Assembly: GCF_013167455.1 (NCBI RefSeq)
Contig: NZ_CP038328.1
Reading direction: 5' to 3' (one strand)
Source of the DNA: Escherichia coli O157:H7
GTDB taxonomy: Bacteria; Pseudomonadota; Gammaproteobacteria; Enterobacterales; Enterobacteriaceae
DNA length: 64,000 nt
Part shown: piece after piece, positions 33,001 to 39,000 of the stretch
Position numbering within the stretch: position 1 is the first letter of the stretch
Layout: each line of letters starts with the position of its first letter
Position numbers: made by a program

Positions 33001-36000
33001 CTCCTGCTCCTGTTCCTGTTCTTGGCTTCGAAGCCCCTTAAAAGCCCCTTCGAAGCCCCTTACCGAATTTCGGCTATTATTCCGCCTCACATCCAGATGG
33101 AAATCCGTTTTATATCTGTCGTAAAACACTGACAGAAAAGCGTTTTCAGGTAATGATGCATACTCATTCCTGACACCTGCACAACGGTTATCGCCAGGCT
33201 TCAACGTTTCCCCAACCTGCCAGGCTGCCATTTCATGGACCCAGACCATCTCTGCATCATGGTCATAGCTACAAAAACCAGCTTCAACAGCCCTTTTAAG
33301 CCCCTTTGAAGCCCCTTCCAGACCAAGCCCGGTTTCATGAGCAAGGTATAAAACTGGCAGGTAATACAAACCCAGCATATTTGCGTGAGGGGATGTCATC
33401 AGGTAAAAAGCAACAACTTGCGCTTCTGCACCCGCCTTTCTAAGTTCTCTCCCCGTTTCTCCCAGCCAGAATCGCGGAGAAACTTTTGCGTAATCACGCA
33501 TGGCTACCTCATCTGGTGCCGAACCTTCCTCCGGATATAATCTGTGGTTCCCAATCGACAGAACCAGAGGAGGTTCGACATGTATTTTTTGAAAAGCCTT
33601 TATCAGGCTCATGTATTAAATGTTGCAGCAACAAACCGCTGGTGTAACAGCCCCGAAATGCTCCCGGATTACAGAGCCTGGCTGCGCGCCGAAACATACC
33701 TTCGTCTCGACATATTGATTAGCGAACTTCAAAAAGAGACTGCATCCATTCATAACCTTCAGGGTATCGACGCTGTTCGCATTCTGGTATCGCGCCATAG
33801 TGCTCTCTCAATAATTGAAGTGCGTCATCTCTCTTTTTCTGAACTGATTTTCTTGCTTCAACCAGCTCTGGAATCAGCGAATATCCCGCCGGAAGTGATC
33901 CAATACCCACCTCATGTTGACGAGCAGTTACAAGATGTGCCATACAACCAGCGTGCTGGATTGACTCCCTGCTCAGAGGCTGAATGGGATCACTCTCTGC
34001 TGAAGAAATACCAAGATTTGTATAATCCTCAATAAGCCCGGCACACGCTTCTGCATCAGCCAGCTTTATTCTGGTTTCCTTGCGCTGTTCTCTGGCTGAC
34101 AAACGCCAGAGCAGCGCATTAGCTTTATGTATCAACCACTCTGCCAGCTCCACATCAGATAAACCGCCACGCCAGATGTGCGGACTGTTTTCGTAAACGC
34201 TCAGTGTCAATTTTTTGTCATTACTCATATTTATTACCCAATTAATGCACAGCCAGAGTGTTTCCTGCCGGGCCACCACGATTCATCTGATCGAACAGAA
34301 CGATCGCTGATGCAACGAAATCATCAATATCTTTCACCAGCCGTTCCTTCGTCTCTACCAACTCCCGAAAATAAGCGGAACTGTGGCTGCGCATTCGGGC
34401 CACCAGCGGAGGCGGCATCGCTTTTTCGATCGCTGGTAACAACGCCTGAATTTTTTTAACCGCATCAGGAGTGTCTTTCTCCACCCAGCGGAAAATTTTC
34501 TGAGTATTGCGAGCCATGGCTTCCGGATGGCTGTCGTCATACAGTTCCGGGAACGTCATTCCCAGCTCGAAATACGCTTTGGTAATTTTCGCAGCCGGTA
34601 CTTTTTCGCCGTCCGGATGCGCCCAGGCATTCATCGCCATGCGGATGTGTTCATGCTTGATTTTCATGAATCAACTCCGGCGCATTTGATGTGTTAACCT
34701 TACATCCAACAGGTAAACCGTCGGTTGGGTTAGGATAAATATCTGGGCGGATTTCATGCGGGGTAACTTCCCACTTCATTAGTTGGCATAACGGAATTAC
34801 CTGCTTTGGGGGAACGCCAAAGCTAAACCATTGCCAAACAGTCTGTTGAGCGACCCCCATATAACGACCTATTTCAGCCTGAGTGTATTTCTGCCTAATT
34901 TTTTCGCGAGTGCTATCTAGCATTTTGCCCTCCTCTAAAAACTATAAGCAAAGCCTACAATAAAAAACTGTATGCAATCAACAGTTTTTTATTGTGATGC
35001 TTTTAACAGTATTTACCTGTAAAATTGAATAATGATGAGCGCCCTAGAAGTATCTATGTACAGAATCAGCAAGCTTCTTCAGGAAACTGGATGGAGCCAG
35101 GCTGAGCTTGCCCGTAGAATTGGTGTGACACAACAAACTGTTCAACAATGGGTCAGCGGTAAGGCTACACCTAAAGCCTCAAGTTTGGATAAACTGGTTG
35201 AGGTTTCAGGGCATCCATTGCATTGGTTTTTATTGCCTCCTGAAGAGTGTGAGCAAATTTTCACCCCTGACACGATGAAAATTGGTCCTCGCCAACGCGA
35301 ACTGCTCCAAGCTTTTAGTGCGTTTCCTGAGGAAGACCAAGAAAAAATGCTTCAAGAAATCAAAGACAAGAAAAAATCAATGGAAGAAACCATTGCTAGG
35401 TGGCTGGCGGCACAAAAAAGCCGCCGGGCGTGACCACAGTACAAGAAGAGGAGTTATGCCATGGGTACAGCCCTTTCTCCGATAGTTTCAGAATTCGAAA
35501 CTACCGAACAAGAAAACAGTTACAACGAATGGTTGCGCACTAAAGTAACGTCAAGCCTTGCAGACACTCGCCCCGCAATTCCACATGACGAGGTAATGGC
35601 TGAAATGGAAAATCTTATTGCTCAAATTGCTGTAACTAACAAGAGCGAGTAATGTTACCCATTTTATGGCTACCGTCTGCTCGCGATGATTTGCGCCAGA
35701 TCATAACTTACATCGCCAAGGAGAACCCACCGGCAGCACGTAGACTAAAAATACGCATTGAAACATCGGTATTACCTCTATCTGAGCATCCGTACTTATA
35801 TCCACCAAGCGAACGGGTTTCTGGATTGAGAGAGATCGTGACCCACCCTAACTACATAATCCTGTACAGAGTAGCTGCTTCAAGCATTGAGATTGTAAGC
35901 GTGACACATTCTCGGCGACAATTTCCCTTCTCTATCTGAGTTGAACAATTTTCATACTCCCTCTTTCGAGGGATTTTTTTGCCCAAAACAACAATTAAAA

Positions 36001-39000
36001 ACTGTTGACACAAAAACAGTTTTTAATTGTAGATTACATACACCAACCACCCACCCCGCCCCACAGAACGCCGGGCAATACTTCGAGTTACCAAGCAGTG
36101 GTCAGGGGGTAAGTAGCCAGCCCGAGGCGTATGAACATGACGGCAGGGTTCAACTTTAATAACTATGCAGCAGGTTTTTGTTCCGCTACCCGGCGTTAAG
36201 GGGAAATGAGGTCAACATGGATACTATCGATCTTGGCAACAACGAATCTCTGGTGTACGGCGTGTTTCCCAACCAGGACGGTACATTCACCGCGATGACG
36301 TATACCAAAAGCAAAACGTTTAAAACCGAAAATGGTGCCCGTCGCTGGCTGGAAAGAAACTCAGGTGAGTGATATGGATTTCGACACAATCATGGAAAAG
36401 GCTTACGAAGAATACTTCGAAGGCCTTGCCGAAGGCGAGGAAGCTCTCAGCTTCAGTGAGTTTAAACAGGCGCTTTCCAGTTCGGCAAAATCTAACGACT
36501 AACGGAGTTAAAGATGGAATTTAAAGATTTACTAAAAGAAATCCAGGAAATTGCAGCACATGCACTTCACCAACGTCTGAACGAAGTTGAATTAGAATCT
36601 GCAACGAAGAAATACATTGATAATATGGCTCGTAATGTGCGCGATGCGTTTACCGGATTGTACTCTGTTTCGGTAACAAACAACCAGAATACTGAAGAAA
36701 CTGCAAAGCGGATTGCCTCGGTGATGGGTTTTCATGTCGAGGAAAAGTATTCAAAAAAAGAATTCTGGAAAACTACAAAAAAATTGCAGAGCGAGAACTG
36801 TCATCTCCTGCGGCAATCGCTTCTTTCTATGAGGAAAGTTATTCAGATGACACAGGATTACCGGAACTGCTCTCATTACTTGAAAAATTCGGAATTATCA
36901 TGAAAGGGACTGCGTCGGCGGATTTCACATACTCAATGATGGCTGCTGATGGAGAGCCTTTTCCTCCCGAACTTAAAATAACCCCCGGCAATCATCCGAT
37001 GGTAACAATAAGAGCAATAGAGAATTACTGGTTTAATCCAGTTCAACAATAGTTGGTCTTTGCAATATTTTTAATGGGCCACTACGCCCTTAATCTCGGG
37101 CGGCGTTTAACTCTTTATTCAGTAAATCAGACTGATACTGATTTGGCTTTGTAATGATACTGTCAAGTTTTGATATATGAAATTCAACATGTTCTGGACA
37201 GTTAAAAATGTAATAACCGCCCTTCTCTAAAAAGCCAGAAAGAGCGTTACAGGCAGGGCATGGTTTGTTTGGCATTTTATCCTCCATTAAGGGCTGAATT
37301 AAAAATGGAGACCAACACGCTGCTACGTGTGGTCGTGCGCCGGACACAGATAAGAATCCGGCACTGACAGTTTACTGAAAGGATATATCCCTGAAAAGTC
37401 AGGGCATAACACGAAAGTGCACGGCGAAGTCCTTCTCCCTTAGAGCCGTCGTTAAATTTAATTCGACCGTGCGCTTCCGGTTGTGGCAATCCGCGAAATG
37501 GCGCGGCGGTAAGTATGGCGGGGTTATTCTTTCCCCGTTGAGGACACCGGGTTGTCAGGTTGACCATACGCTTAAGTGACAACCCCGCTGCAACGCCCTC
37601 TGTTATCAATATTCTGGTGACATTTGGCGGTATCAGTTTTACTCCGTAACTGCTCTGCCGCCCTTTTTTAAAAGTGAATTTTGTGATGCGGTGAATGCGG
37701 CTCAGCGCACGCGGAACAGTTAAATCGGTAAAGCGGTCATTTGCTGAGTAACGAGAATGCTCTGTATCCGGCGTTAATTGTTAACTGGTTAACGTCACCT
37801 GGAGGCACCAGGCACCGCATCACAAAATTCATTGTTGAGGACGCGATAATGGAAAAGTTATCATGTAATGCCAGCACGTCTGAACTTCGTTTCGAAATTG
37901 GCGTTATCACTGGAGACAAAACATTTATTGAAGACGCCATTAAGCAGAGAAAACTCGAGCAGGACCTGTTAAATGAAGTATGCATTCCTTCAATGCTGGC
38001 TCGTCTGGACCTGCTGCAAAAAGGATATAAACAATGAATACAACATTTGCACTCGTTCTGACAGTTTATCTTGTTTCCGGCGAATCTCTTGAGCTGGTGA
38101 CTGGCTTATACGGTTCAATGAAAGAATGCATGGCTGCAGCAGCAGAACAAAAAATTCCCGGTAACTGTTATCCGGTAGATAAAACTACTCACACTAATAA
38201 TAACGAAATACCGGCAGGACTTTAAAACAGCACCGTAATTAATATCCGGTTTCATTTTTATATGCCAGCAATGGCAGGGATTTGTTCACCCTTAAATCTG
38301 TAATGAGGTTAAAACACAATGAGTAAAATCTTTATTTGCGCTGCTATTCCTGACGAACAGGCCATAAAAGAAGATAGCGCTGTTGCGGTGGCCACTGCCA
38401 TTGAAGCCGGTGATGAGCGTCGCGCACGCGCAAAATTTCACTGGCAATTTCTGGAGCAATTCCCGGCAGCTCAGGACTGCGCTTATAAATTTATTGTCTG
38501 CGAGGATAAACCCGGCATACCCCGCCCTGCCCTCGATTCCTGGGATACCGAATATATGCAGGAAAACCGCTGGGATGAGGAGTCAGCTTCCTTTGTACCG
38601 GTCGAACCAGAATCCGATCCGATGAACGTCAATTTTGACAAGCTGTCCCCTGAAGTACAGAACGCAGTCCTGGTTAAATTCGACACATGCGAAAACATCA
38701 CCGTTGATATGGTGATTAGCGCACAGGAATTACTACAGGAAGACATGGCAACATTCGGCGGACATATCGTTGAAGCGTTGATGAAAATGCCAGAAGTTAA
38801 CGCCATGTATCCTGAACTTAAACTGCATGCCATCGGGTGGGTTAAGCATAAATGTGAGCCTGGCGCTAAATGGCCTGAAATTCAGGCAGAGATGCGCATC
38901 TGGAAAAAACGTCGCGAAGGTGAACGCAAGGAAACCGGAAAATACACGTCTGTTGTTGATCTCACCCGCGCCAGAGTCAACCAACAGAACACTGAAAACG

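Follow-up and report, generated by a model that had tools for sequence, protein, structure and literature searches.

What are the two related palindromes, A5-ACTGT ... ACAGT-T5, that stand at the early promoters of a prophage in Escherichia coli O157:H7? In the window (the whole 64,000-nucleotide stretch of contig NZ_CP038328.1 analysed here), positions 30001–42000 are 99.98% identical to prophage Sp4 (CP-933M) of E. coli O157:H7 Sakai; the Sakai counterparts of the genes at this locus are ECs_1067–1071, ECs_1069 being annotated as phage repressor protein, and Pfam assignments in the region comprise YdaS, YdaT, HTH_3, PaaA2 and ParE. We conclude that the palindromes are very probably operators, arranged in pairs, that belong to the immunity switch of this lambdoid prophage.

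Anatomy of the two palindromes

Palindrome 1 lies in the 108-bp intergenic region that separates cro-like ydaS from the divergent gene for a CI-like repressor of the PaaR type. Palindrome 2 precedes an early gene that had been taken for ydaF-like and is actually ydfA (DUF1391, E 1.7e-28); DicF and dicB follow downstream, and the palindrome appears to sit at a PL-type promoter of the ydfA–DicF–dicB operon. The genes and the terminator are as follows.

34242–34667, minus strand: YdaT, CII-like (ECs_1071)
34651–34923, minus strand: Cro-like YdaS-family HTH protein (ECs_1070), recognition helix AQQTVWQW
35032–35433, plus strand: CI-like repressor, PaaR-type, 133 aa (ECs_1069)
35461–35939, plus strand: toxin–antitoxin pair paaA (35461–35652) and parE (35652–35939), co-transcribed with the repressor
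35958–35980, plus strand: intrinsic terminator of the repressor–paaA–parE operon, −9.6 kcal/mol, then a T7 run
36217–37663, plus strand: start of the PL operon, with ydfA (36217–36372), ydfB (36374–36502) and on to the DicF sRNA (37612–37663), then dicB

Both inverted repeats were found where the earlier note had placed them. Their complementarity is indeed perfect, but the arms, described there as 10 bp, are 15 bp long, and the coordinates given for the second (35997–36024) were one base off for 10-bp arms. Palindrome 1 consists of ACAATAAAAAACTGT (34957–34971) and ACAGTTTTTTATTGT (34981–34995) around a 9-bp gap, and palindrome 2 of ACAATTAAAAACTGT (35991–36005) and ACAGTTTTTAATTGT (36016–36030) around a 10-bp gap, or, read alternatively, of 16-bp arms around an 8-bp loop. 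In each the arms are 15/15 complementary and the whole spans 39–40 bp; the arm sequences of the two differ by a single A/T exchange, seen in mirror image on either side. Counting perfect inverted repeats with arms of 12 bp or more and loops of 12 bp or less gives four distinct ones in the 64-kb window, including these two palindromes, compared with 0.035 per window in Markov-simulated sequence, where they are about 100-fold rarer. The 15-mer ACAR-N7-YTGT occurs nine times in the window (4.1 expected), five of them inside 1.1 kb; none of 1,000 simulations placed four or more within 1.1 kb. Because both the repeats and the clustering of 15-mers exceed the Markov simulations, a chance origin is excluded. 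Within ±2.7 kb there are exactly five copies, all at the sites that we call OR (spacing 24 and 25 bp) or OL (spacing 25 bp); the search for further copies thereby added a third OR site at 35006–35020, related to the others and overlooked in the earlier note.

The 15-bp arm as the probable binding unit

Each palindrome would thus be a pair of adjacent 15-bp repressor/Cro sites at an early promoter, the probable binding unit being the single arm, with pseudo-dyad ACA(A/G)-N7-(C/T)TGT, rather than the palindrome. The operators and putative promoter elements are listed by position.

34952–34957, minus strand: putative PR −10 hexamer TAGGCT, 18 bp after TTGATT, predicted to drive ydaS and ydaT
34957–34971: OR1, 15 bp, ACAATAAAAAACTGT, left arm of palindrome 1, predicted to occupy the spacer of leftward PR at −26 to −12; ACA/TGT ends invariant in 11 loci
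34972–34980: OR1–OR2 gap, hypervariable at 34972–34976
34976–34981, minus strand: putative PR −35 hexamer TTGATT, TCA conserved
34981–34995: OR2, 15 bp, ACAGTTTTTTATTGT, right arm of palindrome 1, probably bordering the −35 regions of PR and PRM on their upstream side
35006–35020: OR3, 15 bp, ACAGTATTTACCTGT, probably reaching from the PRM spacer into the −10 hexamer, whose first base it shares
35020–35025, plus strand: putative PRM −10 hexamer TAAAAT, separated by 6 nt from the start codon of the repressor
35991–36005: OL2, 15 bp, ACAATTAAAAACTGT, left arm of palindrome 2, adjoining the upstream end of the putative PL −35 hexamer
36005–36010, plus strand: putative PL −35 hexamer TTGACA, invariant in the E. 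coli loci
36016–36030: OL1, 15 bp, ACAGTTTTTAATTGT, right arm of palindrome 2, in the putative PL spacer
36030–36035, plus strand: putative PL −10 hexamer TAGATT, invariant in the E. coli loci

The reported overlap of a TTGACA hexamer with palindrome 2 is borne out, the hexamer overlapping the end of the first arm.

Evidence for the 15-bp unit comes from a footprint alignment of 11 loci from E. coli, Salmonella, Klebsiella/Raoultella, Pluralibacter and Morganella (repressor identity 48–100%). No variation is seen at the ACA and TGT ends of the three 15-mers, in the −35 TCA, in the PRM −10 or in the ATG, whereas the central 7 bp of the 15-mers and the gaps vary. The motifs are therefore kept by position in related immunity regions: the layout of three plus two sites recurs in relatives with repressors 48–91% identical, at −75, −51 and −26 from the repressor ATG, and OR3, which is solitary and has no mirror partner, stands at −26 in 10 of the 11 loci. 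Relatives keep the internal spacing of the 15-mers constant, but paired sites lie 8, 9 or 10 bp apart, the mirror identity of partner sites falls to 9–14/15, and their central bases agree as well as those of any two sites compared. At population scale, OR1 and OR2 are unchanged in all 41 E. coli loci, and their gap, in which TCA(A) is kept, has at least 12 alleles; among the 32 loci that could be aligned, nucleotide diversity is 0 at OR1–OR3 and 0.02–0.03 at OL2/OL1, and reaches 0.34 at the five central gap bases, as against 0.06 at the third positions of repressor codons. The palindromic appearance would then arise because two near-identical asymmetric sites mirror each other around a −35 hexamer.

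The earlier note had pictured the inner A5-ACTGT/ACAGT-T5 half-sites, with their 9–10 bp spacer, as the operator, so that one dimer or tetramer would cover 39–40 bp. Higher oligomers of PaaR2 exist in solution (PMC8630535), so that one particle could span both arms; this speaks for such a single operator, as do the twofold 15/15 complementarity and the mirrored A/T difference. We nevertheless consider it unlikely: the inner distance varies from 8 to 9 to 10 bp between and within lineages, which is incompatible with a dimer of fixed geometry across the palindrome; the symmetry is lost in relatives, even Sakai having 14/15; OR3 is a lone 15-mer at a conserved position; and the 15-mers are oriented as in 434, while the inner half-sites run opposite to what a 434-type recognition helix calls for. 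The comparative evidence thus favours the note's assignment to the prophage repressor or Cro-like protein, although not its anatomy. Perfect symmetry at two places, with the matching A/T difference, is more than paired 15-bp sites require.

There is only a slim chance that the palindromes act as nucleic-acid structures, that is, as RNA hairpins (terminators or attenuators) or DNA cruciforms. Each does fold as a hairpin of 15–16 bp (−16 to −18 kcal/mol, z about −5 to −6), palindrome 2 came up on the minus strand in a search for terminators, and the hypervariable centre of palindrome 1 is loop-like. However, the stems are almost pure A/T and lack a proper U-tract, the region already has a canonical terminator with a GC stem 10 bp upstream of OL2, and both palindromes lie upstream of the putative transcription starts of their own promoters. 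Moreover, relatives have no compensatory pairing (the OL sites of one locus, L044, match at 9/15) while the ACA/TGT ends stay fixed.

Covariation of operators with repressor type

Comparison of immunity types indicates that operator motif and repressor type change together. Among heteroimmune relatives, OR and PL have in common a motif other than that of Sp4, and conservation persists in the leader downstream of PL. GTTTAGT is found at both places in the locus whose operators match the published CP-933P motif, AATAGCAnTGCTATT at both places in a third immunity type, and TGTTAG..CTAACA at dicA/dicC/dicBp of K-12 Qin. The best solved-structure match of ECs_1069, whose N-terminus carries a 434-like HTH, is the 434 repressor DNA-binding domain, with the recognition helix TQQTVQQW aligned to TQQSIEQL; the Cro-like ECs_1070 has QQTVWQW. 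Annotated 434 operators read ACAA-N6-TTGT, with ACAG in OR3. A relative with Arg at the position of the third Gln has ACAC-N7-GTGT sites at the same offsets, and covariation between residue 33 and base 4 is clean in one locus only (L059), two other variant groups being messier.

Phage 434 is one of the closest known systems. Shared with it are the ACAA half-site and its natural ACAG variant (434 OR3 is ACAAGAAAAACTGT), an AT-rich non-contacted centre, three OR sites (spaced 22–23 bp in 434, 24–25 bp here) and a Gln-Gln-x-x-x-Gln recognition helix; sequence similarity is confined to the HTH (E 3e-5). The Sp4 operator is 15 bp (N7) and that of 434 is 14 bp (N6), so the 434 docking geometry is not simply transferable. 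Sp4 further differs in having two OL sites rather than three, and in its repressor: a domain search detected no LexA-like S24 peptidase (self-cleavage) domain in ECs_1069, which has instead the C-terminal domain common to PaaR2-type repressors.

A LexA box is CTGT-N8-ACAG, with a spacing of exactly 8. The CTGT and ACAG cores in their AT-rich surroundings resemble such a box, and because the repressor lacks a self-cleavage domain, some other link to the SOS response would be needed, which direct control of the early promoters by host LexA could supply. This is very improbable, as the earlier note had argued from the 9–10 bp spacers. The spacing is N9 and N10 here and N8 to N10 in relatives, and an exact-spacing search gave two matches in the window, none in the immunity region, one of them the genuine sulA box (52964–52979). 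In addition, the Sp4 unit ACAR-N7-YTGT reads outward from each CTGT/ACAG and changes with the phage repressor in heteroimmune relatives, as a host LexA site would not.

Equally improbable is that the sites, AT-rich and at promoters as they are, serve YdaT, IHF, Fis or H-NS: Rac YdaT does bind its own immunity intergenic region (PMC11879457), but an exact copy of the published YdaT box TTGATT-N6-AATCAA lies elsewhere (34657–34674), ydaT is conserved across heteroimmune loci with differing operators, and the positions kept are ACA/TGT, not the AT-rich centres.

Promoters and a proposed switch

A consensus sigma-70 scan called none of PR, PRM and PL, and their positions are accordingly placed by conservation and analogy. 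The PR −10 hexamer matches the consensus at 3 of 6 positions; its T, A and final T are kept in homologues, and it is invariant in the E. coli loci except at 34954. PRM has no recognisable −35; in the alignment its −10 is TAnnAT, invariant, with the ATG 6 nt later. Because so little separates the −10 from the ATG, ahead of which no Shine–Dalgarno sequence was seen, the layout implies a leaderless repressor mRNA, like that of lambda cI. At PL, TGAC follows the upstream operator in 10/10 homologous OL modules, the spacer is 19 bp compared with 18 bp in most relatives, and OL1 carries a SNP at 36025 relative to Sakai.

If each palindrome is a pair of adjacent repressor/Cro sites at an early promoter, it follows that the locus would work as an ordinary lambda-style genetic switch. 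To the anatomy, conservation, covariation and homology of the sites, which we observe, the proposal adds probable protein binding at all five, putative promoters, a presumptive order of site filling and perhaps OL–OR looping. One repressor dimer would bind each 15-bp unit, the Cro-like YdaS would compete for the same five units, and both would read ACA(A/G) half-sites through the 434-type Gln-Gln-x-x-x-Gln helix. Each of the three promoters would have one operator at about −26 to −12, its last T forming the first T of the −10 hexamer, and at PR and PL a second operator would abut the −35 hexamer. Repressor on OR1 and OR2 would then block RNA polymerase at PR (ydaS–ydaT–replication genes), and on OL1 and OL2 at PL (ydfA–DicF–dicB operon); bound at OR2 it may activate PRM with its weak −35, and OR3 could serve negative autoregulation and be the likely first Cro-like target.

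This kind of switch is already known, the paralogous one of CP-933P/Sp12 having been characterised in 2021 (Jurenas et al. 2021, PMC8630535). Footprints of PaaR2 and of YdaS were obtained there on the intergenic region, each protein represses PR and PRM as well as a PL promoter with the same repeats, and paaR2 is leaderless (PMC8630535). Sp4 has the same order of ydaT, ydaS, divergent intergenic region, PaaR-type repressor, paaA, parE and PL-type promoter, has its sites exactly at the CP-933P OR and OL positions, and likewise has repeats common to OR and PL and probably a leaderless repressor start. The two repressors share a homologous C-terminal domain (E 2e-20, 39% identity across 97 aa), but the DNA-binding parts differ, as do the operators (ACAR-N7-YTGT in Sp4, an 18-bp inverted repeat of the GTTTAGTAA type in CP-933P), the intergenic regions (108 bp in Sp4, 97 bp in CP-933P) and the OL sites (two found in Sp4, three reported for CP-933P). 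In CP-933P, inverted and direct repeats overlap, and its authors were unable to pin down the exact binding sequences (PMC8630535); one dimer per 15-mer may be too simple a picture of how the operators really work. The literature searched held no characterisation of the Sp4/CP-933M version and no binding, footprint or reporter study of its immunity type; what is new here is the operator sequence of this switch, previously not written down.

Lambda likewise has a tripartite OR between divergent PR and PRM, a leaderless maintenance promoter with a weak −35 beside OR2, as we propose here, and, roughly 1 kb off at PL, a further cluster of operators; its sites, however, are 17 bp and of different sequence, its CI is RecA-cleavable, and cooperativity and looping, proven there, are conjecture for Sp4. 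K-12 Qin resembles Sp4 in the position of its regulated unit, in its divergent dicC/dicA-like pair, in one motif at both places and in a PL-type promoter driving ydfA–ydfB–ydfC–DicF–dicB, but differs from it in the motif itself, in the unrelated recognition helix of DicA and in having no paaA–parE between repressor and PL.

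Sites in the immunity region

Positions 30001-42000 of the window are 99.98% identical to prophage Sp4 of E. coli O157:H7 Sakai, with two differences in 12 kb, at 36025 (the centre of the site OL1) and at 40828. Because of this identity and the gene content, we take the locus to be the homologous system on CP-933M that is mentioned by Jurenas et al. (PMC8630535). The prophage ends at about 42.1 kb, at the integrase, and the rest of the window is host chromosome. Prophages with this switch are present in 509 of 5,426 complete E. coli genomes (~9%), O157:H7 included. Rfam matches elsewhere inside the prophage are an ALIL pseudoknot (an IS3-family frameshift signal; 20814-20930), the STnc100 sRNA adjoining three tRNA genes (23460-23976) and the sok antitoxin RNA of a hok/sok module (28701-28875). 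The features of the immunity region are as follows.

Features of the immunity region
34242-34667, minus: ydaT (ECs_1071)
34651-34923, minus: Cro-like ydaS (ECs_1070)
34924-35031: intergenic region of 108 bp, holding palindrome 1
34957-34971: left arm of palindrome 1 (OR1), ACAATAAAAAACTGT; a 9-bp gap follows
34981-34995: right arm of palindrome 1 (OR2), ACAGTTTTTTATTGT
35006-35020: third, solitary copy (OR3), ACAGTATTTACCTGT
35032-35433, plus: HTH repressor of 133 aa (ECs_1069), annotated "phage repressor protein"
35461-35652, plus: paaA, antitoxin
35652-35939, plus: parE, toxin
35958-35980: intrinsic terminator
35991-36030: palindrome 2
35991-36005: left arm of palindrome 2 (OL2), ACAATTAAAAACTGT; a 10-bp gap follows
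36016-36030: right arm of palindrome 2 (OL1), ACAGTTTTTAATTGT
36217-36372, plus: ydfA (DUF1391)
36374-36502, plus: ydfB
37612-37663, plus: DicF sRNA (match of 76.9 bits)
downstream of DicF: dicB

An earlier note had described two related palindromes with perfect 10-bp arms. Both inverted repeats are present, but their arms are longer, with 15/15 complementarity in each; the note had also overlooked the solitary 15-mer at 35006-35020 and had called the gene after palindrome 2 ydaF-like, where we find ydfA. In palindrome 2, the first arm ends within the TTGACA hexamer (36005-36010). Counting perfect inverted repeats whose arms reach 12 bp or more and whose loops do not exceed 12 bp, the window has four distinct ones, palindromes 1 and 2 included, compared with 0.035 per window in simulated sequence. 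The remaining two, with perfect 12-bp arms at 45531-45560 (ATCCCCGGAAGG/CCTTCCGGGGAT) and 57999-58023 (GAAACCTCCGCA/TGCGGAGGTTTC), are GC-rich, belong to the host portion of the window and look like terminators.

Each arm is itself a pseudo-dyad whose two ends are ACAAT and ACTGT (the complement of ACAGT). The resulting motif, ACAR-N7-YTGT, occurs nine times in the 64-kb window (4.1 expected), and five of these copies fall in the immunity region, starting at 34957, 34981, 35006, 35991 and 36016; the remaining four, in host genes past 50 kb, are GC-rich at the centre. None of 1,000 simulations placed four or more sites within 1.1 kb. The sites are spaced, start to start, by 24 and 25 bp at OR and by 25 bp at OL. 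OR1-OR3 occupy the divergent intergenic region (34957-35020) between ydaS on the minus strand and the HTH repressor on the plus strand, so that a pseudo-palindromic site recurs at regular spacing over what would be the promoters, and a second set of two 15-mers flanks TTGACA at the putative early-left promoter (35991-36030), upstream of ydfA-DicF-dicB, an operon that encodes cell-division inhibitors. The canonical terminator at 35958-35980 (TCCCTC-TTTC-GAGGGA followed by T7; -9.6 kcal/mol) closes the repressor-paaA-parE operon 10 bp before OL2, so that a third OL site would not fit. In the 509 complete genomes carrying the five sites, RefSeq has no annotation under them.

A degenerate direct repeat, AAAAACTATAAGCAA, over the ydaS ribosome-binding site was considered as a fourth OR site (34931-34945) and rejected, as it has no ACA/TGT ends. 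It resembles AAAAACTGTATGCAA of the OR1 region, 26 bp away; the repeat (34931-34951) is not conserved and may be a decayed fourth site.

Conservation of the 15-mer

Loci encoding relatives of the repressor (91, 80, 68-69, 50 and 48% identity) were gathered from viral contigs and public assemblies and come from E. coli, Salmonella, Klebsiella/Raoultella, Pluralibacter, Morganella and unassigned sources. In these relatives ACAR-N7-YTGT again stands at -75, -51 and -26 from the repressor ATG, and a pair of 15-mers again surrounds TGAC at the downstream promoter. The motif is conserved in related immunity regions, with 3 + 2 sites at matching offsets across 48-91% identity. Alignment of OR from 11 loci revealed that the three 15-mers are invariant at their ACA and TGT ends, as are TCA (part of the leftward -35 hexamer), TAnnAT and the ATG six bases on, and that the seven central bases and the gaps are variable. 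The gap between paired sites is 8, 9 or 10 bp depending on the locus, the internal spacing of the 15-mer is constant, and the mirror identity of partner sites drops to 9-14/15; we conclude that the constrained element is the 15-mer and that the palindrome arises incidentally where two similar sites mirror each other.

The proposal that these sequences are operators for the repressor or Cro-like protein is supported by their position, layout and covariation with the repressor, but the palindrome with 10-bp arms does not stand as the unit: the gap varies and OR3 is solitary. A single long operator at each pair was rejected on the same grounds. Nor is a mirrored orientation of A-tracts a conserved rule, since in the relatives partner sites resemble each other in their central bases no more than any two compared sites do.

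The same pattern is found within E. coli, where OR1 and OR2 are invariant among 41 loci and the 9-bp gap between them has at least 12 alleles. Diversity was calculated for the 32 of the 41 loci with enough flank to align (23 haplotypes).

Nucleotide diversity in 32 E. coli loci
OR1, OR2 and OR3: 0
OL2 and OL1: 0.02-0.03
Repressor gene, third codon positions: 0.06
Five central gap bases, 34972-34976: 0.34

TTGACA and TAGATT at PL and TTGAT and TAG.CT at PR are also invariant, and diversity returns directly outside the operators and promoter hexamers. At PL, the gap (36006-36015) is 10 bp in this lineage, giving a 19-bp promoter spacer, and 9 bp (18-bp spacer) in most relatives. A single nucleotide difference at 36025, A here and T in Sakai, accounts for the perfect symmetry of palindrome 2 here versus 14/15 at OL in Sakai. 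The gap centre 34972-34976 is hypervariable among otherwise near-identical E. coli loci in which both arms are invariant; this could reflect neutral drift, promoter tuning or a hairpin-loop mutation hotspot.

Putative promoters and heteroimmune types

We propose three promoters, positioned by conservation and by analogy with CP-933P, in which transcription starts have been mapped and PaaR2 and YdaS repress PR, PRM and PL (PMC8630535).

Putative promoters
PR, minus: -35 TTGATT 34981-34976; spacer 18 bp; -10 TAGGCT 34957-34952; expected start ~34945
PRM, plus: no recognisable -35; -10 TAAAAT 35020-35025; expected start 35032, the A of ATG
PL, plus: -35 TTGACA 36005-36010; spacer 19 bp; -10 TAGATT 36030-36035; expected start ~36042

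A consensus scan called none of the three. Because the hexamers are invariant, we infer that the operators overlap the -35 and -10 elements: each promoter would have one operator at about -26 to -12, with the last T of the operator being the first T of the -10 hexamer, and OR2 would lie directly upstream of the -35 region of PR as well as of that of PRM. An alternative -10 for PR, TATAGT (34946-34941, minus), was rejected for lack of conservation and because transcription would then begin within the ribosome-binding site. The repressor ATG lies 6 nt past the PRM -10 hexamer and has no Shine-Dalgarno sequence, which implies that the repressor mRNA would be leaderless, as the paaR2 mRNA has been shown to be in CP-933P (PMC8630535). 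Binding of the operators by repressor and Cro, with repression of PR and PL, has likewise been shown in that paralogue (PMC8630535).

Loci with the same flanking genes and other repressors carry other motifs, one motif being common to OR and PL in each, so that site and repressor covary over four immunity types.

Operator motif by locus
Window (Sp4): ACAR-N7-YTGT
L003, a comparison locus whose operators match the published CP-933P motif: GTTTAGT
L002, a comparison locus of a third type: AATAGCAnTGCTATT
K-12 Qin, dicC/dicA and dicBp: TGTTAG..CTAACA

All three types with paaA-parE share the leader downstream of PL (CCAACC.CACCCCGCCCCACAGAACGCC...), of which K-12 Qin keeps only a part; this C-rich stretch (CCAACC.CACCCCGCCCCACAGAACGCCGGGCAATACTTCGAGTTACC...) spans 36036-36216 in the window, 3030-3200 in L002 and 2940-3110 in L003. 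As the leader is conserved across heteroimmune prophages with differing operators, the -10 hexamer or the transcription start marks the mosaic boundary.

Among other readings of the palindromes, a hairpin or terminator has in its favour that the folds are stable, but the stems are A/T-rich, relatives do not retain the pairing and the plus strand has no U-tract after the stems; moreover, the palindromes lie upstream of their own putative starts, and a proper terminator adjoins just upstream. The earlier note was right to set aside their resemblance to LexA SOS boxes: CTGT and ACAG are separated by N9 and N10 here versus the required N8, the motif covaries with the phage repressor, and an exact search for CTGT-N8-ACAG in the window matched only at 3757 and at the sulA box at 52964. 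The latter is a genuine LexA box (TACTGTACATCCATACAGTA, 52964-52979) upstream of host sulA, then ompA, and serves for comparison. Identity with the PaaR2/CP-933P operators fails, as GTTTAGTAA-type 18-bp inverted repeats are absent from 34924-35031 and from the PL region and present in L003; the locus is the CP-933M paralogue, not CP-933P. Sites for YdaT were dismissed because the published box is found as an exact copy elsewhere, at 34657-34674: TTGATT-N6-AATCAA, the inverted repeat shown in CP-933P to be the main binding site of the CII-like YdaT, has its sole match in the window there (TTGATTTTCATGAATCAA), at the ydaS/ydaT junction and spanning the ydaT start codon.

The architecture of such a switch is already known from lambda, 434, Qin and the closest paralogue, CP-933P, and the finding alters no principle of phage gene regulation. 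New here is the operator map of five 15-bp sites, three putative promoters and a probably leaderless repressor mRNA, which makes the CP-933M/Sp4 switch directly testable; in the searchable literature (434 operator, paaR1, CP-933M repressor) we found no description of its operator sequence. The switch governs the ParE toxin-antitoxin pair, the DicF small RNA and the cell-division inhibitor DicB. The map accounts for the heteroimmunity between this switch and that of CP-933P/Sp12 in the same cell, and it provides a simple comparative rule for operators in this large cryptic prophage family, namely one motif at OR and PL, just upstream of a conserved leader.

Comparison with the phage 434 repressor

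Among solved structures, the repressor is matched best by the DNA-binding domain of phage 434 repressor (E 3e-5), and no phage repressor in the phage collection is more than 55% identical to ECs_1069. TQQTVQQW of the repressor aligns to TQQSIEQL of 434, and the glutamines at 434 positions 28, 29 and 33, which read the ACAA half-site in 434 repressor, are kept. The recognition helix of the Cro-like protein, AQQTVWQW, is consistent with its competing for the repressor's sites. The 434 record lists ACAAGAAAAACTGT, ACAAGATACATTGT and ACAAGAAAGTTTGT at OR and ACAA-N6-TTGT at OL, spaced by 22-23 bp. As in 434, all five sites here have ACAA or ACAG half-sites at their outer ends, reading inward (434 OR3 has ACAG), and an AT-rich centre. 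However, every copy of the operator, here and in the homologues, measures 15 bp with a centre of 7 bp, versus 14 bp with 6 central bp in 434, and the immunity region has no N6 version of the motif. The proteins differ as well: in place of a LexA-like, self-cleaving S24 domain, for which no match was found in the repressor, the 133-aa protein has a C-terminus homologous to PaaR2-type repressors (39% identity over 97 residues).

In the relative encoded at locus L059, the helix is SQQTVQRW, with Arg for the third Gln, and ACAC-N7-GTGT sites stand at the same offsets (ACACAAAAAACGTGT and ACACAATAATTGTGT at the OR1 and OR2 offsets; L059 1316-1353). This single clean example suggests that residue 33 reads base 4 of the half-site. 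Covariation of the two is not clean throughout, as base 4 is degenerate in L058 (Arg) and the motif in L049 (Lys) is a different one, ACTTTWAAAGT-like.

We consider improbable the joint proposition that PaaR-type repressors are a naturally re-engineered 434 code and, separately, that the palindromes were shaped by hairpin-templated correction and loop mutagenesis. For the palindromes, quasi-palindrome correction templated by a hairpin, together with loop mutagenesis, may lie behind two features beyond the constraint of protein binding alone, namely the 15/15 symmetry of both operator pairs in E. coli, with its mirrored A/T difference, and the hypervariability of the 5-bp centre of palindrome 1. 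For the proteins, the PaaR-type family may combine the Gln-Gln...Gln helix of 434 and the ACA(A/G) half-site, on a 15-bp frame, with a non-cleavable oligomerisation domain. If true, the family would be a ready-made specificity series, in which replacement of the third Gln by Arg shifts base 4, as in L059.
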